In this document: in pieces, positions 9,650-18,014 of the stretch
Layout of the letters: each line of letters opens with the position of its first letter
How positions within the stretch are numbered: position 1 is the first letter of the stretch
DNA from: an uncultured Dehalococcoidia bacterium
Lineage (GTDB): Bacteria > Chloroflexota > Dehalococcoidia > SZUA-161
Length of the DNA: 64,000 bases
NCBI GenBank assembly: GCA_964453665.1
Contig: CAYVQT010000004.1
Span: 4,142 to 68,141, forward strand
Direction of reading: 5' to 3'
Translations under genes and position numbers: made by a program
Notes under the pieces: generated by a model
What the model was told of the DNA's origin: nothing
Database searches by the model: none
Seen by the model: only the letters and a program-made list of their open reading frames with translations

Positions 9650-11515
9650 CTATTCTCCGGCAGTAACCCTACGACTGCGCCCGGATGCCGTTTTCAACGC
9701 ACTATACTTACTCTGGCAGCTACTCATTTTCCCCTGAAGTCCACAGGCATTGCACGGCCCCGAACTACAATTAGGGGTTTCTTCTCCTAGCATAGTTCGT
9801 TCGTATTCTTTCCTGAGGAAACCGTGACTGATGCCGGTGTCTATATGTGTCCAGGGTAATATCTCATCCAGTGAGCGCTCCCGGCATGCATAGAAGCAGG
9901 GATCAAGGCCGCATCTACCGAAAGCCGTTTGCCACTTCTCATAGACAAAGTGTTCGCTCCAGGCATCGAACCTGCTCCCCAGTCGCCACGCGTGTTCGAT
10001 TGCCCCGGCCAGTCGCCTGTCACCACGCGACAGCACTCCCTCTAACAGGCTCGCATCAGGGTCATGCCATGACAATTGAACCCCCGACTTTTTCAGACCG
10101 TTTCTGAGAATCTGCTGTTTCGCAGCCAGCTCATCCTCGGACACTTGAGCCACCCACTGAAATGCGGTATGAGGTTTGGGAACGAAGGTAGAGGCATTAA
10201 CCCTGACATTAATTCTGCCCTTGCCCACACTCTTTATCCTGCGTACCAGATATACTATGCCCTCTATGTCGCTCAGCGTCTCGGTTGGCAGCCCGATCAT
10301 AAAGTAAAGTTTTACGCTTTTCCAACCTCTCTCCCAGGCAGTCTCAATAGTCTGCAGTATGTCTTCCTCAGAAATACCCTTATTAATCGCCCGGCGCAGC
10401 CGTTCTGTCCCTGCTTCAGGAGCGAAGGTAAAACTGGACTTCTTTCCATCCCGTAAGGAATCGGCTAATGCCACGGAAAAGGTATCAAGGCGCAGGCTGG
10501 GCAGCGACAGGATAATATTGTTTCCCCTGTACCGCTCTGATATAACGTTTACCAGATTCGCAATATCCGGATAATCGCTGGTACTCAGAGAAAGGAGAGA
10601 AATTTCGTCATAACCGCAGTTTCTCGCCAGGTCACCTACTGCCCTGACAATCTCCTCCCGGGAACGCTCCCTTACAGGTCGGTAGATTATGCCCGCCTGA
10701 CAGAAACGACAACCCTGATAACAACCGCGCTGTATCTCGACTGCGGCCCGGTCATGTACCACCTGAAGGTAAGGCACCAGGGTATTTGTCAGCGCGGGGG
10801 GTAAATTAGACACAATACGCCGCTCAATGGCCGGTTTCGCTTCAGCAACCATAGGTGTTATTGCTGCCACGGTCCCATCGTCATGATAGTCAACGCTGTA
10901 AAAACGGGGCACATAAATACCCTGTATCTGCGCTGCTTCACGAAGCAGTTCCTCCCTCCGCCCCGTCCCCTCTCTCTTCCATTCTCGGTATATATCAAGC
11001 AGCTCCAGGACCACCTCTTCGCCCTCACCTACAACAAACAGGTCTATAAATTCTGCCACTGGCTCCGGGTTAAGAGCGCAGCTACCACCCGCGATAACCA
11101 GTGGCATAGAGTCATCTCTTTCCGCAGCATTTATCGGCAGCCCTGCCAGGTCCAGTAGGTTGAGCACGTTGCTGTAGGTCAGCTCATATCCCAGTGAGAA
11201 CCCGATAATATCGAAGTCTTTTACAGGCCGTTTCGATTCCAGGCTGAAAAGGGGGTAGCCATCGCTGCGCATCTCAGCTTCCATATCGACCCAGGGGGAA
11301 AAGACCCGCTCTGCGAGCACATCGGTCTGCCTGTTCAGCAGATCATATATGATAGCCAGTCCGAAATTGGACATGCCGATCTCGTAGAGGTCGGGATATG
11401 AAATAACTACCTTTATCGCTGTCGATTCCCAGTCCTTTGAGACGCTGTTCCATTCTCCACCTGTGTAGCGGGCAGGCCTTTTTACTCTGGAAAGAATACT
11501 ATCTAGATTTACCAT
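9650..11515 (-). CDS. B12-binding-domain radical SAM protein (TIGR03960-like, function unknown)
   Basis: 621 aa. N-terminal B12-like domain, then EIQRGCYQGCRFCQAG (a CxxxCxxC radical SAM cluster motif). Confidence 0.85.
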   Translation of the reverse strand: MVNLDSILSRVKRPARYTGGEWNSVSKDWESTAIKVVISYPDLYEIGMSNFGLAIIYDLLNRQTDVLAERVFSPWVDMEAEMRSDGYPLFSLESKRPVKDFDIIGFSLGYELTYSNVLNLLDLAGLPINAAERDDSMPLVIAGGSCALNPEPVAEFIDLFVVGEGEEVVLELLDIYREWKREGTGRREELLREAAQIQGIYVPRFYSVDYHDDGTVAAITPMVAEAKPAIERRIVSNLPPALTNTLVPYLQVVHDRAAVEIQRGCYQGCRFCQAGIIYRPVRERSREEIVRAVGDLARNCGYDEISLLSLSTSDYPDIANLVNVISERYRGNNIILSLPSLRLDTFSVALADSLRDGKKSSFTFAPEAGTERLRRAINKGISEEDILQTIETAWERGWKSVKLYFMIGLPTETLSDIEGIVYLVRRIKSVGKGRINVRVNASTFVPKPHTAFQWVAQVSEDELAAKQQILRNGLKKSGVQLSWHDPDASLLEGVLSRGDRRLAGAIEHAWRLGSRFDAWSEHFVYEKWQTAFGRCGLDPCFYACRERSLDEILPWTHIDTGISHGFLRKEYERTMLGEETPNCSSGPCNACGLQGKMSSCQSKYSALKTASGRSRRVTAGE

Positions 11516-11617
11516 TTTCGCCTCAAGCAGTCATTATAGCTTCATGGTGTTAACGGCGCAAATTGGAGACCGAACATTCTTGACTTATACCGCTTTTGGC
11601 CTTAGTCTAAAACCGCA

Positions 11618-12274
11618 ATGAGCTTCCGCGAACTGGACCAGCCCCTCGAACAAGTGCAGGAAGAAACAGGTTTGGATGAGGGGAAAATCGTAAAACCAGA
11701 GGTAAGAATACCGGGCAAAGGGCGTTGGAAATACATACTTCTGCTGGCAGCGGGCGCCCTGGCGATGATACTGGTGAGCATCCTTATTAAGAAGCCGACC
11801 AACTTCGAAGAGTACATCACCGCCTCTGGTTACGGAGGCGTATTTCTTATGGCGGTCATCGGCAGTGCATCCCCGGTCTGGCCTCTCCCCGGTTCGTGGG
11901 CAGCCTTCATCGCCGGAGGCCTGGGACTGAACCCGTTTCTACTGGGACTGGCTGCGGGATTCGGTGAGCCTATAGGAGAGCTTACCGGCTACACGGCGGG
12001 CTACGGCGGACAGATAGCCATCAACAAATGGAAGAGATATGAGAAAATAGAGAACTGGATGAGGCGGCACGGCGGTATCACCATATTCTTCATATCCGCA
12101 ATACCAAACTTTTTTATAAAGCTGGCAACCGTAGCCGCCGGCGCCCTCTGCTATCCTCTGTGGAGGTTCTTCATTTTCTGCTGGGCGGGCAAGACAGTCA
12201 AGTCACTGGCTTTCGCCTTTGCAGGCGCCGGTCTTTTCGACGGGATCAAGGCTCTTATCGAGCGCGTCTTTTAG
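11618..12274 (+). CDS. DedA/YqaA-like (VTT domain) membrane protein
   Basis: 218 aa, multiple TM segments, GGVFLMAVIGSASPVWPLPG segment resembling the VTT/SNARE-associated domain. Moderate certainty on the family. Confidence 0.6.
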   Translation: MSFRELDQPLEQVQEETGLDEGKIVKPEVRIPGKGRWKYILLLAAGALAMILVSILIKKPTNFEEYITASGYGGVFLMAVIGSASPVWPLPGSWAAFIAGGLGLNPFLLGLAAGFGEPIGELTGYTAGYGGQIAINKWKRYEKIENWMRRHGGITIFFISAIPNFFIKLATVAAGALCYPLWRFFIFCWAGKTVKSLAFAFAGAGLFDGIKALIERVF

Positions 12275-12403
12275 TATACTTTCCATTACAACGTTCGACT
12301 GCGTTATATACCTTCCAGCCATCTCCTCAACACCCGTAGCATTTGCCCCTGAAACGCTGTTGCGTTAAAATCACCTCAACATCTCCCCCAAGAGGATAAT
12401 ATA

Positions 12404-12889
12404 ATGGAAACACTTCTCATCGCGCTCGTTTCTATATTGTTGCTGCTATTGATAGTGGTGCTGGCGCTGCTGCTGAGGCCGAGGAGGGTTGAGGTGCCCG
12501 CTATAGAGGAAATGGAGAACAAGCTCCGCTTCGCCCTCGCCTCCGCGGACTCGGTAAAGCAGATTCAGGAAATCCTGGAGGACCTGCCCAGCGACCTTCT
12601 GCAGTCGATTACCAGGAGCCTGGGCAAGAGGACGGGCAAGCTCAACGAGCTGATGGCCACCTTCGAGCTGACCCAGTACGACAGGCTGTTCTACCTGGGC
12701 GACCCCATCGACTTCGTCGGCATCAAGTACGACGAGAGCATCGACTTTATCGAGGTCAAGACAGGGAGGTTTCGCCTCACCGAGGACGAGAGAAAGCTGA
12801 GGGAGCTTATCGAGACCGGGCGGGTATGCTACGTGCCGCTGACCGTTCAGCGCATCGGCATCGCCGAAGAGGTCGAGACGGGGGAGTAG
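12404..12889 (+). CDS. Membrane-anchored endonuclease related to archaeal Holliday junction resolvase (COG4741 / PF10107-like)
   Basis: N-terminal TM helix (LLIALVSILLLLLIVVLALLL), a helical linker, then GDPIDFVGIKYDESIDFIEVKTGRFRLTEDERKLRELIETGRV. This matches the D...E-x-K PD-(D/E)xK pattern of Hjc-like nucleases. About 62% GC by spot count. Confidence 0.7.
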   Translation: METLLIALVSILLLLLIVVLALLLRPRRVEVPAIEEMENKLRFALASADSVKQIQEILEDLPSDLLQSITRSLGKRTGKLNELMATFELTQYDRLFYLGDPIDFVGIKYDESIDFIEVKTGRFRLTEDERKLRELIETGRVCYVPLTVQRIGIAEEVETGE

Positions 12890-12917
12890 GGTTCTAATTA
12901 GGCTTAGGAGGTGGGAA

Positions 12918-14222
12918 ATGGTACTAATGATAAGGTGCCCACTTACTGGATTGACTTGCGGCAAACCTATCGCTATTCAAGAAAAGACCTTCTTTCTTTC
13001 AGAAGCTGATGAACCCCGCGATGCGACAGATCGGCGGCGTAAAGCCATAAAAGAAGCGCTAGGAAAGAAATATCAGATAAGAAGCGCGCTTCTCGAGAAG
13101 CAGCCAATTGCGTTTAATTGCAAGATTTGTGAAATGATACAATCTTGTGCCTATGGCATAGCTGACATTACAGGACAAAAACCTAACGTGCTACTGGAAT
13201 TAGGGATGATGTTCGCACTTGGTAAGCCCACAATAATACTGTGTAAAAAGGGAGAAGAATGGCTATTGCAACTGCCTTCGAATCTGAATGCAATAGAAGT
13301 AGTTCCCTTCGAAGACTATATCGACATAATAGATGATGTCAGACAAATTGCTTCATCACTTCCACCATCAGTAACGCCGCTGTTACCTTTTGAGGAAACA
13401 GAGAAGGTTTTACAAGAGTTTAACCCTCAACTTGCTAAAGATATAAAAAAGGCGTTAGACGAACACAAAATTACACTGGTTGCAGAATTCGAGAAGGTCA
13501 TCAAAGAAGCCAAACTGGACACCACTGTTTCTGAGAAGGAGCGGATTCAAATTACACCGAAGCTAGAAGAAAGACTGGCTAAGCTTGAAGAGTCGCTAAA
13601 GAAGTACGAGAGGCTGGGATTTGCATCGGACGCAACGACCGCTTTTTACAGGGGTAATTTCTACTATGACAGGCAAGAATACGAGGCTGCTATCGAGCAA
13701 TACGATTGGGCTTTTACACTGAATCCTCATTATACATCAGCACTAAACAACAGGGGCAACACCTATCATGAACTGGAACGCTACGATGAAGCCATCGCTG
13801 ACTACAACCGCGCCATCGAGCTAAGGCCCGATTACCCCGAAGCACTAAACAACAGGGGCAACACCTATCATGAACTGGAACGCTACGATGAAGCCATCGC
13901 TGACTACAACCGCGCCATCGAGCTAAGGCCCGATGACCCCGTAAAACTCAAGAACAGGGGTACTACTTACACTAAAATGGAGCGTTACGATGAGGCCCTC
14001 GCTGACTTCAACAGGGCCCTCGAGCTAAGGCCCGATTTCTCCGGTGCGCTATACAATTTAGCGTGCTTTTTCTCACTGACTGACAGGCCGGATGATGCTA
14101 TTTCTAATTTAGTGAAGGCCATACGGCTGGGTCAGAAGTACCTCGAAATGGCGAAAACAGACAGCGACTTCGACAAAATTCGCAATGACCCCAGATTTCA
14201 AAATTTAATTGAAGAAGACTAG
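12918..14222 (+). CDS. TIR-like (PF10137-like / nucleoside 2-deoxyribosyltransferase-like fold) domain, coiled coil and five TPR repeats; function unknown
   Basis: AGGAGGTG RBS 5 nt before the ATG. N-domain: KTFFLSEAD ... [53 protein letters not shown], which matches the NVxFELG...G..PSDL signature of bacterial TIR-like effector domains. Residues about 150-235 are K/E-rich helix. The C-terminal half holds 34-aa TPR units and a DPRFQNLI cap. The N-terminal half is about 37-40% GC by spot count. Confidence 0.65.
13739..13942 (+). repeat. Tandem 102-bp duplication (2 copies, 100/102 identical) equal to exactly one TPR unit
   Basis: 13739-13840 and 13841-13942 differ only at offsets 95 and 102. 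Both encode [31 protein letters not shown]. Confidence 0.95.
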
Positions 14223-14224
14223 CT

Positions 14225-16195
14225 ATGCCACCATTTAAAATCGTCTCCGATTTCGGGCTTACGGGCGACCAGCCCCAGGCGGTGGACAAGCTCGTCGATG
14301 GGCTAAAACAGGGCCACGGGCAGCAGACGCTTCTCGGCGTGACCGGAAGCGGCAAGACCTTCACTATGGCCAACGTCATCGAGCGCGTCCAGCGCCCCAC
14401 GCTGGTCATTGCCCACAACAAGACTCTCGCCGCCCAGCTATGCTCCGAGTTCCGCGACTTCTTCCCCGATAACGCCGTGGAGTACTTCGTCAGCTACTAC
14501 GACTACTACCAGCCGGAGGCCTATATACCACGCACCGACACCTACATCGAGAAGGAGATAGATATCAACGACGAGATAGACAAGCTGCGCCACGCCGCCA
14601 CCCGCTCCCTCTTTACCAGACGCGACGTGGTCATCGTAGCGTCGGTGTCCTGCATTTACGGTTTAGGAGACCCTGACGAGTACTACGGCTTCGTGGTGAG
14701 CCTCTCAAAGGGAGAGAAACGGAACCGGGACCGGCTCGCCCGTCAACTGGTTGACATGCAGTACGAGCGCAACGACATCGACTTTACGCGGGGACGCTTC
14801 CGCATAAGAGGGGATACCTTGGAGATACAGCCCGCTTACGAGGAGCTGGCGGTACGAGTCCAGTTCTTTGGCGACGAGGTCGAGCGCATCCTGGAGATAG
14901 ACCCGCTCACGGGAGAGCTCCTCGCCGATCGCGAGCAATTAGAGATATACCCCGCCAAGCACTTCGTTACCTCATACGACAAGCTGATGGCCGCTATCGC
15001 CGACATACAGGTCGAGATGGGGGAGAGGGTCGCCGAGCTCAAGGGCCAGGGCAAGCTGCTCGAGGCGCAGAGGCTGGAGGCGCGCACCAACTACGATATC
15101 GAGATGCTGCGCGAGGTGGGCTACTGCACGGCGGTGGAGAACTACTCACGCCACCTCGCCCGCAGAGCCCCGGAAAGCAGGCCGTGGACGCTCCTGGACT
15201 ACTTCCCCGACGATTTCCTGCTCTTCGTCGACGAATCACACATGGCGCTGCCCCAGGTCAGGGGCATGTACCACGGCGACCGCTCCCGCAAGGAGACCCT
15301 TGTTGAGTACGGCTTCCGCCTGCCCTCGGCGCTGGATAACAGGCCGCTGAACTTCGGCGAGTTCGAGGACCTCATCAACCAGGTTATATACGTCTCGGCC
15401 ACTCCGGGGCCCTATGAGTACGAGCACAGCGTTCAGGTGGTGGAGCAGGTTGTGCGACCCACCGGACTCCTCGACCCCACGGTCGAGGTCAAGCCCACAA
15501 AAGGACAGGTCGATGACCTCCTCGACCAGATAAAGACCAGAACCGACCGCGGCGAGCGCTGCCTGGTCACCACCCTGACCAAGAGGATGGCTGAGCAGCT
15601 TGCCGATTACCTTATCGAGATGGGCATAAAGACCCACTACCTCCACTCGGAGATAGATACGCTGGAGCGGGTGGAGATTCTGCGCGACCTGCGCCTGGGC
15701 GTCTACGACGTTGTGGTGGGCATCAACCTGCTGCGCGAGGGGCTCGACCTGCCCGAGGTGAGCCTTGTCGCCATCCTCGACGCCGACAAGCAGGGTTACC
15801 TCAGGTCATGGGGGGCTCTCATCCAGACAATGGGCCGCGCCGCCCGCCACATCGAAGGGCATGTCATAATGTACGCCGACACGGTTACCGACTCCATGAG
15901 GCGCGCGATAGACGAGACCGACCGCCGCCGCAAAATTCAGGAGGCTTATAACCTCGAGCACGGCATAACCCCGCAGGGCATCAGGAAAGCGATAAGGGGC
16001 ATCACCGACCAGCTTAAGGCAGTCGCCGAGACGCGCGCCCCGTACACCGTGGACGCCGCCATCCCTAAAGATGAGATAGCACGCCTGATTAAGAACCTCG
16101 AACACCAGATGAAAGCGGCGGCCAAGAACCTTGAATACGAGAAGGCGGCCCTTCTTAGAGACCAGATCGTAGACCTGAGGAGAGAGCTGGTTTAG
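14225..16195 (+). CDS. uvrB: Excinuclease ABC subunit B
   Basis: 656 aa. [16 protein letters not shown] start, Walker A GVTGSGKT, helicase motifs, C-terminal UVR domain ([18 protein letters not shown]). The ATG lies 2 nt after the upstream stop. Confidence 0.97.
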
Positions 16196-16226
16196 AGATA
16201 AGGCAAACATAAGAATTTATGCGGTT

Positions 16227-16263
16227 CTCCCTCCCGCAAGGGGAGGGAGTTAGAGGGAGGGGG
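16227..16263. repeat. GC-rich hairpin repeat, type A copy 1
   Basis: CTCCCTCCC-gcaag-GGGAGGGAG followed by TTAGAGGGAGGGGG. Near-identical copy at 16899-16935 and a partial copy at 16859-16877. Confidence 0.85.
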
Positions 16264-16266
16264 CAG

Positions 16267-16302
16267 TTCACCCTCACCTAACCTCTCCCGTCAAGGGAGA
16301 GG
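16267..16302. repeat. Hairpin repeat, type B copy 1
   Basis: TTCACCCTCACCTAA then CCTCTCCC-gtca-AGGGAGAGG. Repeated at 16671-16732. Confidence 0.85.
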
Positions 16303-16322
16303 TACATTTAGAGTAGAAAATT

Positions 16323-16667
16323 ATGAAAGGACAGAGGCCAACTTTTATCGCCCGAAAGCTACGTCAGAATCAAACTGACGCTGAGGGTCTACTTTGGATG
16401 AGGATGAGGAACAATCAGCTAGAAGGCGCTAAGTTCAGACGACAACAACCTATAGGTTCATACATCGTTGATTTTATAAGCTTTGAGCGAAAGCTTGTAA
16501 TTGAAATCGACGGCGGTCAGCATAATGAGAAGGAATCTCGGGAAAGGGATCATGATAGGACAACCTGGCTTGAGAATAGAGGCTATCATGTACTGAGGTT
16601 CTGGAATAACGATATTCTTACGAATATCGAGGGTGTTCTGGAAAGGATAGGTGAAGTTCTAGGATGA
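16323..16667 (+). CDS. DUF559 endonuclease-domain protein (Vsr/restriction-endonuclease-like fold)
   Basis: 114 aa. ARKLRQNQTDAEGLLW ... FRRQQPIGSYIVDF ... KLVIEIDGGQH ... D..RTTWLENRGYHVLRFWNNDI is the canonical DUF559 pattern. About 35% GC by spot count. Confidence 0.88.
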   Translation: MKGQRPTFIARKLRQNQTDAEGLLWMRMRNNQLEGAKFRRQQPIGSYIVDFISFERKLVIEIDGGQHNEKESRERDHDRTTWLENRGYHVLRFWNNDILTNIEGVLERIGEVLG

Positions 16668-16670
16668 AGT

Positions 16671-16732
16671 TTCACCCTTACCTAACCTCTCCCGTTCGGC
16701 TGAGCTCACGGCCGAAGCCGTCAAGGGAGAGG
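16671..16732. repeat. Hairpin repeat, type B copy 2, carrying a nested 26-nt hairpin insertion
   Basis: Same arms as 16267-16302, but the loop contains an extra palindrome of the type TTCGGC..GCCGAA. Starts 4 nt after the DUF559 stop. Confidence 0.85.
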
Positions 16733-16858
16733 AATATGCGATAGGATTTTCGCCAAGCATTAATATCAAACATAGATTACCGATAAAGGTATTATTAAAG
16801 AGCCTTAAATAGAAAGAGGCTTGTAAATATTTTTCGCTTTCCTACCTACTCTTGCAGA

Positions 16859-16935
16859 AGGGAGTTAGAGGGAGCGGTAGATAGAGAGTCTTACTGTCCT
16901 CCCTCCCTTGGCGGGAGGGAGTTAGAGGGAGGGGG
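16859..16935. repeat. Type A repeat: partial copy (16859-16877) plus full copy 2 (16899-16935)
   Basis: AGGGAGTTAGAGGGAGCGG, then CTCCCTCCC-ttggc-GGGAGGGAGTTAGAGGGAGGGGG. Same orientation as copy 1. Confidence 0.85.
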
Positions 16936-17145
16936 AAGGTCATTGGAAGAGGATAAGACCAGACAGGAGAGACGCGAGGAGCGGCAGCGTAAGAGCAGAT
17001 ATAAGATGCTTAAGCACGGACGGGGCCTCGTCCGTGTGTATAAGGACGCCATACTCAAACGAATCGGGAAAGGAAATAAAAAGGCATAGCGTTTGAAATG
17101 AGATTCTTCGCTACGCTCAGAATGACACAGGGGTAAGGAGAGCAT

Positions 17146-17967
17146 TTGAAGAGAACTGGTATCTTTTTTCTCTACCTGATCGGAGAGCGTCTTAATGACT
17201 TCCCCGAAGAGCTTGCGGGTATACTGGACAGACCCAATATCAGCTTCTATGAAGCCTTCTACGAGCTCACGCCGACGCCCGAGGAGCTGCTCCTGAAAGT
17301 CCACACGCCTCAAATGATAGAGAGTGTTAAACAGACCATCTACTACGAGACAGCCCTTTACTCAACGGGCGGCACAGTACAGGCTGCGGAGCGAATATGG
17401 CGCAGCGAGATAGACAACGCCTTCGTTTTTACGGGTACCGGCGACCACCACGCCGGGAGGGATTACTTCGGCGGCGGCTGTCACTTCAACGGAGCAGCGC
17501 TGGCTATAGCTAAACTGAGGGGAGAGTTCGGGGCGAGGAGATTCGCCATACTCGATACCGACTCTCATCACGGAGACGGCACCAGGGACATATTCAAGGA
17601 TGATAAAGACGTTCTCCACATCTGCCTCTGCGGCTATGACCACGACGATGGCACCAACGTGGATGTTGCTGTCCCTTACTCCATCACCGACGAGCGATAT
17701 CTGGGCATACTGGAAGCCGAGTTTACCCCCCGGATTGCTGATTTCAGGCCGGAGATAATATTCTGGGAGTTCGGCTATGACGCCACCAGCGGTGATTACG
17801 GGAGCAAAGGGCTGTCCATTGACTGTCACCCGCAGATAGCCGGAATTGTGCGTCGGGCAGCTGATAGCGTATGCCGTGGAAGGGCGGTTGCCATTCTCTG
17901 CGGCGGCAGCAGGCGTGACATAGCCCGATACTGCATCCCGAGAGTCATAAACCGCTTTTCGGAATGA
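17146..17967 (+). CDS. Histone deacetylase / acetoin-utilisation (AcuC-like) family deacetylase
   Basis: GTGDHHAGRDYFGGGCHFNG and AILDTDSHHGDGT zinc/active-site motifs of the arginase-deacetylase superfamily. TTG start after AAGGAG. Confidence 0.85.
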   Translation: MKRTGIFFLYLIGERLNDFPEELAGILDRPNISFYEAFYELTPTPEELLLKVHTPQMIESVKQTIYYETALYSTGGTVQAAERIWRSEIDNAFVFTGTGDHHAGRDYFGGGCHFNGAALAIAKLRGEFGARRFAILDTDSHHGDGTRDIFKDDKDVLHICLCGYDHDDGTNVDVAVPYSITDERYLGILEAEFTPRIADFRPEIIFWEFGYDATSGDYGSKGLSIDCHPQIAGIVRRAADSVCRGRAVAILCGGSRRDIARYCIPRVINRFSE

Positions 17968-18014
17968 GTCCGGTTATCTCCAAAAATGACCAGTAGATAT
18001 ATATCATTTGGGCG

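Follow-up and report, generated by a model that had tools for sequence, protein, structure and literature searches.

TIR-like effectors of the PF10137 family (CAP12/PycTIR) are used in two types of prokaryotic immunity, the cyclic oligonucleotide-based antiphage signalling system (CBASS) and the pyrimidine cyclase system for antiphage resistance (Pycsar), in which the effector head is joined to a separate sensing domain. Enzymes of PF05014, among them the cytidine monophosphate (CMP) hydrolases BcmB and MilB, DNPH1/Rcl and the nucleoside and purine deoxyribosyltransferases (NDT and PDT), are small stand-alone proteins. A further, recently described TIR/NDT-like family, DUF4062 (Swarozyc, Evangelion), has a conserved catalytic Glu and serves anti-phage defence as an NADase (bioRxiv 10.64898/2026.05.01.722283). 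Here we describe a related gene in a 64,000-nucleotide stretch of DNA from an uncultured Dehalococcoidia bacterium (contig CAYVQT010000004.1, positions 4,142 to 68,141; hereafter the window). The gene lies on the plus strand at positions 12918–14222, between the gene of an Hjc-like nuclease and uvrB, and encodes a protein of 434 amino acids (aa) for which we use the working name X. Our preferred reading, in which we place about half of our confidence, is that X is a single-chain sensor-effector, which occupies, as dispensable cargo, a slot prone to recombination immediately 5' of uvrB and serves as an accessory stress or defence effector.

X and the PF10137 effectors are alike in that an effector head is joined to a separate sensing domain, and the head of X has the same fold class, an NVxFELG-type motif and a conserved Glu. 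Unlike the PF10137 systems, X is without a cyclic-nucleotide sensor (STING, SAVED or a cNMP-binding domain), its predicted sensor being a coiled coil and an array of tetratricopeptide repeats (TPRs); the Pfam and NCBIfam domains of X and its neighbours in the window included no cyclase gene and no cyclic-nucleotide sensor of the CBASS/Pycsar type. Four cysteines (C7, C14, C68, C71) are a further feature to be noted against PF10137, the signature having been read in X and its wider family alone. The PF05014 enzymes supply the best structural matches of the head, but in X the head is fused to a TPR array, and the glycine-rich phosphate loop that follows strand 1 in DNPH1 is absent by eye, X reading FFLAEAEEP. 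DUF4062 proteins differ from X in their partner domains and genomic setting, and Pfam scans of X and 13 relatives gave no DUF4062 match; by analogy only, they support the mechanism suggested below, as an instance of divergent clan members that are immune NADases.

The head comprises residues 1–150 (12918–13367, plus strand). Residues 65–132 scored 25.4 bits against PF05014, below the Pfam gathering cut-off of 28.8, and 16.1–17.3 bits against PF10137, below the cut-off of 24.7. The head also matched the PADLOC 'Effector TIR' model PDLC00733 (E = 9.5e-7, over 48 residues), while NCBIfam had no model for it. Among the 13 relatives of our first alignment, PF05014 was matched by all 13 (E ≤ 0.1, best 6e-7) and PF10137, weakly, by 12. 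The head thus reads as a clan-level relative of PF05014 and no curated member. An AlphaFold2 (AF2) model of residues 1–170, built on a 106-sequence alignment, has a predicted local distance difference test score (pLDDT) of 82 and a predicted template modelling score of 0.79 and shows a five-stranded alpha/beta fold; this alignment replaced one of 13 sequences, whose model was unusable (pLDDT 40.7). The top match of the model found by Foldseek in the PDB was the CMP N-glycosidase BcmB (4jen; E = 1.7e-4, template modelling score 0.78–0.81, root-mean-square deviation 3.2), and other matches were the SpbK TIR domain, DNPH1, the SPARTA TIR-APAZ protein, a purine deoxyribosyltransferase, 1s2l, TIR-STING and SARM1. 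In a viral structure library the model matched a CMP hydrolase, an NDT and models of CAP12/Pycsar-TIR. The flavodoxin-like alpha/beta fold of NDT, DNPH1 and BcmB is accordingly present in the AF2 model as judged by Foldseek. Sequence searches of the family profile against the PDB gave non-significant matches (E 0.3–2), which were used solely to place E94. By profile and predicted structure, the head belongs to the NDT/TIR-like clan. This agrees with the preliminary description of the locus, which had proposed a TIR-like/NDT-like N-domain with the Glu of NVLLELG, and the profile matches, the AF2 model and Foldseek bear this out.

Conservation was counted in 104 aligned X-family sequences and in 146 representatives of the wider family described below. 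E94, which lies in NVLLELG, is Glu in 96 of the 97 covered X-family sequences and in 135 of the 146 wider representatives. It aligns on the Glu of Rcl YELG and of MilB VEIG, the rat Rcl segment VVAEVTQPSLGVGYELGRAVALGKP aligning with GIADITQNNANVLLELGLMLALGKP, and we take the Rcl Glu to be the catalytic one. In X the Glu stands at this catalytic position, within an E-x-G motif that opens the helix following strand 3. The cysteines C7, C14, C68 and C71 are invariant or nearly so in the X family wherever covered (C71 in 98 of 101); in the wider representatives C7 and C14 are invariant where covered, and C68 and C71 are found in 124 and 130 of 146, respectively. Together, these cysteines probably bind a metal (zinc) and in this way tie the N-terminal hairpin to helix 2. 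N90, G96 and K103 are near-invariant in both sets, and further conserved head residues are D83, G102-K103-P104 and an LPS(D/N) motif.

A profile search of a word-indexed database found about 120 clusters of X homologues, mostly 358–441 aa long and 54–71% identical to X. Those named in their sources are called 'tetratricopeptide repeat protein' and come from Dehalococcoidia or Chloroflexota. More than 100 Dehalococcoidia homologues share one architecture, a head, a coiled coil and 4–7 TPRs, and all full-length family members consist of a head, a PPPxSPP linker, a K/E-rich helix, TPRs and an end cap. Since X has about 120 homologue clusters and the adjacent nuclease 1207, both are real genes and not chance open reading frames (ORFs). 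An exhaustive hidden Markov model search of 1.84 billion representatives extended the domain family to 2407 proteins at E ≤ 1e-3 (191 at E ≤ 1e-10), a lower bound counted in clusters of 50% identity. The signature of this wider family has CKIC separated by 22 residues from NVxxELG, and the domain stands at either the N or the C terminus in varied architectures. When 93 wider representatives were scanned, 52 matched PF10137 (best 7.3e-10), 29 matched PF05014 and 35 matched PDLC00733 (best 3.9e-25), while TPRs and response-regulator receiver domains were each found in 11. Because the signature and the matches to PF10137, PF05014 and PDLC00733 are shared, the head of X belongs to a large TIR-like subfamily with four conserved cysteines, whose nearest named relatives, judged by sequence, are immune NADase effectors.

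Several individual members of these families deserve mention. Some wider-family proteins carry tandem copies of the four-cysteine domain (for example P0149, of the set P0124–P0255). Distant homologues with a head and TPRs, 41–47% identical, occur outside Dehalococcoidia (L008/L070, at the end of a contig of an Archaeoglobales metagenome-assembled genome; L012; L013; L071) in contexts that are short or tell little, and the contigs of the distant homologues P0107 and P0111 are likewise short, with uninformative surroundings. In one locus X is split into two ORFs (L001:6001–7280; 191 aa and 205 aa) and in another it is truncated (L002:5971–7035); these are either pseudogenes or assembly or frameshift errors.

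The head is followed by a stalk (residues 151–235; 13368–13622, plus strand), a Pro-rich linker LPPSVTP and then a K/E-rich, helical, coiled-coil-like segment, and the linker and helix are conserved across X-family members. The coiled coil was called from its K/E-rich sequence, and the AF2 model of residues 1–170 gives a helix at 157–168. The remainder (residues 236–434; 13623–14222, plus strand) consists of five TPR units and a TPR end-cap domain, with Pfam TPR_1 matching five stretches (E = 3.8e-47) and the NCBIfam cap NF047558 TPR_END_plus scoring 111 bits. A K/E-rich coiled coil and five TPR units had been described earlier for this protein, and both hold, the TPRs by Pfam and the coiled coil from sequence only. 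X-family proteins are most often 358, 392 or 426 aa long, lengths that differ by 34 aa or one TPR unit, which indicates that the number of units varies within the family. In the window, Tandem Repeats Finder detected a 102-bp (34-aa) tandem repeat at 13739–14037 on the plus strand (2.9 copies, 88% match), and this repeat is a recently duplicated TPR unit inside X.

This architecture suggests how X could work. The TPR array would bind a protein trigger, either phage-derived or induced by DNA damage; binding would alter the oligomeric state through the stalk and bring the heads together; the heads would then cleave the N-glycosidic bond of NAD+ or another nucleotide, and this cleavage would arrest the cell or alter its nucleotide pools. 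X is in this sense probably a TPR-sensor/TIR-like N-glycosidase effector that is co-expressed with uvrB.

The evidence that X is mobile cargo comes from the interval between the Hjc-like gene and uvrB, which we call the slot. Slot contexts were found by searches with the Hjc-like protein and are hence independent of X. The window has the backbone M16 peptidase, geranylgeranyl reductase, aminotransferase IV, GT2, PAP2, radical SAM (minus strand), VTT, Hjc, slot, UvrB, deacetylase and ATP synthase, and this order recurs in many genomes, with the Hjc-like gene as the upstream boundary of the slot and uvrB (14225–16195, plus strand) as the downstream one. In five loci (L014, L073, L076, L077, L078) the slot is empty and the Hjc-like gene stands directly before uvrB; three of these (L076, L077, L078) are the closest relatives of the window, with UvrB 93–95% and the Hjc-like protein 91% identical. 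In another genome, where both flanking proteins are 90% identical to those of the window, the slot holds a 905-aa KAP-family NTPase (L015:8492–11209, and the same in L016) that matches PADLOC PifA over nearly its full length (E = 7.3e-77). The slot may also hold X in a locus without the Hjc-like gene (L011). In two further loci it contains a TPR protein of 260–287 aa with a different head (L074:7419–8282 and L080:979–1761). Over the TPR part, identity to the final 149 aa of the window X is 81% in L074 and 68% in L080; the head of about 130 aa is an unrelated helical domain, 53% identical between the two proteins and, in L074, without a Pfam match. The L074 protein ends 2 nt before uvrB, and the Hjc-like protein of L080 is identical in sequence to that of L077. 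These two proteins may represent an alternative effector.

A visible trace of exchange is found in L017, whose X is the closest to that of the window (71% identity in the head). Two nucleotides after X, at L017:2006–2160, stands a duplicated 36-codon 5' fragment of uvrB fused to the C-terminal tail of an Hjc-like protein, ERIGIAEEVGTEE; this scar is followed by a GmrSD_N protein (NsnA/PD-T4-2_A, E = 2.6e-71), a RiboL-PSP HEPN protein and finally a complete uvrB. From this scar it is evident that recombination at the slot exchanges cassettes whose borders are the 3' end of Hjc and the 5' end of uvrB. In L072, merely 29 uvrB codons (L072:7555–7641) remain after the Hjc-like gene.

No distinct genome retrieved by the Hjc-like searches carries a full X, and two carry only the head-swapped TPR variant. 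X is thus polymorphic in presence at a fixed site that also holds known defence genes, and it is probably dispensable cargo in the clade of the window. The preliminary description had proposed, as a test set in advance, a comparison of synteny around uvrB to see whether the gene is variably present, and had taken universal conservation next to uvrB as the mark of a core gene. X proved absent from the closest relatives and the slot variable, and universal conservation beside uvrB or ruvA was not found among the genomes reached through the Hjc-like protein. The idea of a core repair gene, with X after ruvA everywhere, was therefore dropped in view of the empty, PifA-filled and head-swapped slots.

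The Hjc-like nuclease itself (161 aa, 12404–12889, plus strand) scores 37.2 bits against PF10107 (Endonuc_Holl), above the gathering score of 23.8. Its N-terminal part contains a hydrophobic stretch, LLIALVSILLLLLIVVLALLL, followed by RPRR, and these positive residues after the helix suggest that the nuclease domain faces the cytoplasm. The PD-(D/E)xK motif is DFVGIKYDESIDFIEVK, with the pattern D..(11)..D-F-I-E-V-K. The N-terminal transmembrane helix and the PD-(D/E)xK core of PF10107 type that had been read from the sequence are hence confirmed, the former by the hydrophobic stretch and the latter by the motif and a Pfam score above the cut-off. PF10107/COG4741 has been described as a predicted secreted or membrane endonuclease, and the features of the 161-aa protein, that is the score, the motif and the N-terminal hydrophobic segment, are consistent with this (PMC3424549). 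In Dehalococcoidia the family is highly conserved and stands just 5' of uvrB or 3' of ruvA: homologues form 1207 clusters, and the best 120 of the 1207 are 75–97% identical to the window protein. A PDB search with the protein gave no meaningful match. The pairing of a membrane-anchored PF10107 nuclease with uvrB across Dehalococcoidia may be of interest of its own, and we know of no experimentally defined function for the family.

The preliminary description had suggested that the nuclease and X form a two-gene module, either of two effectors or of a sensor and an effector. Where both genes are present (11 loci: the window, L002, L017, L029, L035, L041, L044, L056, L063, L065 and L068), the order of Hjc followed by X is indeed constant, with the genes about 30–114 nt apart in 10 of the 11 and 674 nt apart in L056. 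Each gene is found without the other in many loci: X is missing beside the Hjc-like gene in L014, L015/L016, L072, L073 and L075–L079, and the Hjc-like gene is missing beside X in L011 and in most of the loci where X follows ruvA. The two proteins also differ in conservation (75–97% for the best 120 of 1207 nuclease clusters against 54–71% for X) and in GC content at third codon positions (GC3; 0.85 against 0.37–0.56), and the 161-aa protein has no PADLOC match. These independent distributions largely refute a module, which we now regard as very improbable; in the relatives retrieved with the nuclease it mostly adjoins uvrB without X, and X is mostly found without the nuclease. The conserved pair is the Hjc-like gene and uvrB, with X inserted between them, because the nuclease gene adjoins uvrB or ruvA whether X is there or not, and X mostly lacks the nuclease.

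The composition of the genes follows the same division. The Hjc-like gene and uvrB of the window have GC3 values of 0.85 and 0.81, respectively, compared to 0.37 in the head of X, 0.45 in its coiled coil and 0.56 in its TPR part; the DUF559 gene discussed below has 0.41, and the other sampled genes of the window, apart from X and DUF559, range from 0.47 to 0.64. The GC difference between a nuclease as rich as uvrB and a poorer TIR-like gene had been raised earlier as a caveat, which GC3 confirms and sharpens. Cargo of the slot is likewise low in GC3 (PifA 0.44, GmrSD 0.45, HEPN 0.42), and X lies below its repair neighbours in most other loci, L011 being an exception. Unusually high GC3 of the Hjc-like gene and uvrB was also seen in L015, L074 and L077. 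We considered and rejected the view that recent foreign acquisition alone explains the low GC3, as the low GC3 occurs in many lineages and yet X co-diverges with RuvA.

Several observations weigh against the reading of X as an accessory effector. The first group concerns the head of the window copy, whose Pfam scores fall below the curated cut-offs. At two positions it departs from most of 104 relatives: residue 88 is K (codon 13179–13181) against N in 99 of them, and residue 122 is N (codon 13281–13283) against D in 89, while its nearest relatives retain N88 and D122. As these two residues deviate from the family, the catalysis or regulation of this copy could be altered. Both facts would fit a non-catalytic TPR adaptor whose head merely binds a nucleotide or metal in a regulatory or scaffold role, with no link to defence or repair, and whose position reflects only inherited gene order, and the response-regulator fusions in 11 of 93 wider representatives suggest signalling output roles. 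Such an adaptor is doubtful given the near-invariant Glu at the catalytic position (96 of 97 in the X family and 135 of 146 in the wider set), and, judging from Pfam and PDB names, the nearest profile families in which members have been assayed consist of enzymes. A second group consists of null results: a scan of viral contigs found no relative of X, and PADLOC called no named defence system at the locus. X gave no full-length match to a PADLOC system protein model and matched only at the level of domains (PDLC00733 TIR, a TPR model and PDC-S35), in keeping with the preliminary description, which did not know the gene trio as a named system.

The third group is the linkage of X to repair genes. 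We compared 6 loci from reference genomes (found by exact peptide patterns), 55 from metagenomes and the contexts of individual homologues, all mapped with tblastn; the loci in which X follows ruvA come from a census seeded on X itself. X stands 7–39 nt 3' of ruvA in 29 of 62 loci, some of them redundant, in the order ACPS-YebC-RuvC-RuvA-X, and exactly 2 nt 5' of uvrB in 14 loci (the window, L011, L026, L029, L035, L036, L040, L041, L044, L048, L051, L054, L056 and L065). The fullest order, ACPS-YebC-RuvC-RuvA-Hjc-X-UvrB, is found in L035 and L041, and L040 has RuvA, 21 nt, X, 2 nt and UvrB. Pairwise identities of the X head correlate with those of RuvA (Spearman 0.62, 25 loci; means 71.5% and 71.9%) and of UvrB (Spearman 0.49, 16 loci), so that X is both coupled to repair genes in an operon-like manner and co-divergent with them. 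With its fixed position after ruvA and its divergence in step with RuvA, X in the clade where it follows ruvA looks, on these data alone, like a vertically inherited member of a repair gene cluster under purifying selection, which is a more housekeeping-like behaviour. Bacterial ruvA is usually followed by ruvB; here ruvB is replaced in that position by X, a PCC-domain gene or the Hjc-like gene (L001, L003–L007, L009, L010 and many metagenome loci).

These data raise the possibility that X assists DNA repair or recombination as an accessory factor specific to its lineage. The TPR array would then dock on UvrB, RuvA, RuvC or the Hjc-like protein, and the NDT/DNPH1-like head would act on a damage-linked nucleotide, for example through hydrolysis of damaged or modified deoxynucleoside monophosphates or through NAD+ signalling. 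Besides the linkage and co-divergence, this alternative can draw on the best structural matches of the head, which are nucleotide N-glycosidases (BcmB and DNPH1), and on the TPR part, which still adjoins uvrB in the two loci with an exchanged head (L074, L080). It is at odds with the closest relatives of the window, which lack X and have the Hjc-UvrB pair intact, with the failure of the Hjc-seeded searches to find a distinct genome with a full X, with the count of about 120 X clusters against 1207 of the Hjc-like protein, with the bona fide defence genes in the same slot of relatives, and with the low GC3 of X compared to repair genes; the conserved synteny, moreover, may partly reflect shared descent within one class. 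On this balance we consider a repair accessory possible but on the whole unlikely. A narrower and rather improbable form of it holds that X is a damage-coupled nucleotide N-glycosidase and no NADase effector, whose DNPH1/BcmB-like head, with its four conserved cysteines, hydrolyses damaged or hypermodified (e.g. hydroxymethylated) pyrimidine nucleotides while the TPR array keeps X on UvrB or RuvA. If this were true, the ruvCA-hjc-X-uvrB cluster would be an unrecognised repair-plus-nucleotide-sanitation operon of Dehalococcoidia or, equivalently, X would signal DNA damage as an enzyme integrated in excision repair.

The accessory effector is favoured by a head family of CBASS/Pycsar type, the arrangement of effector, stalk and repeat sensor, the variable number of TPRs, the swapped head, the polymorphic presence, the defence cargo with its scar and the cargo-like GC3. 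We give it somewhat more weight than a repair accessory because the comparisons on which it draws were not seeded on X and include the test set in advance. The two are not exclusive, as a TIR-like effector transcribed with uvrB could provide a damage-linked abortive or stress response. At the locus in the window, three same-strand genes are separated by spacers of 28 nt (Hjc-like gene to X) and 2 nt (X to uvrB), the ORF coordinates bearing out what had first been reported. A strong ribosome-binding site, AGGAGGTG, precedes X, and the junction of X and uvrB reads TAG-CT-ATG. A promoter and terminator scan, which is weak evidence, found no terminator-like site in either spacer and no promoter predictions above shuffled expectation. 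Because of the 2-nt spacing and the lack of a terminator-like site at the junction, X is probably expressed together with nucleotide excision repair; the co-transcription with uvrB that was suspected at the outset fits the recurrence of the 2-nt spacer in the 14 loci.

The immediate neighbours of X in the window are a VTT/DedA gene, the Hjc-like gene, uvrB and a DUF559 gene. The uvrB gene is complete and encodes 656 aa with the Pfam domains UvrB_inter, UvrB, Helicase_C and UVR. Just 3' of it, the DUF559 gene (16323–16667, plus strand; PF04480, E = 2.2e-42) encodes a protein with a Vsr-like endonuclease fold that has only weak PADLOC domain matches (DpdF, PDC-S37). In L011, L015, L073 and L074 there is just an ORF of 45–65 aa between uvrB and the deacetylase gene, and since DUF559 is absent there at the same position, it is a second small low-GC3 insertion flanking uvrB. 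An Rfam search of positions 11000–18000 gave no match.

The kind of domain and the logic of the architecture are known, as are the fold, the catalytic logic and the joining of a TIR-like effector to a repeat sensor, and the overall claim is accordingly a modest one in which the function of X is a matter of inference. Compared with the literature searched, which held no description of the X family or of the gene cluster, the new elements are the family itself, its four-cysteine signature, its lack of a nucleoside triphosphatase (NTPase) or cyclic-nucleotide sensor and its residence between ruvA, hjc and uvrB in Dehalococcoidia. The four-cysteine subfamily, with at least 2407 clusters that include response-regulator and TPR fusions, has a presumed metal site and an unexplored mode of activation. 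If X is a repair accessory, the locus would be the first ruv/uvr operon with a built-in TIR/NDT-like enzyme. If it is an effector, it would represent a compact, NTPase-free TPR-sensor/TIR-like format that is absent from PADLOC-DB 2.0.0, in an uncultivated and environmentally important class whose immunity is almost unstudied. The junction of the Hjc-like gene and uvrB is a clear and testable hotspot, where cassettes are swapped through flanking homology.

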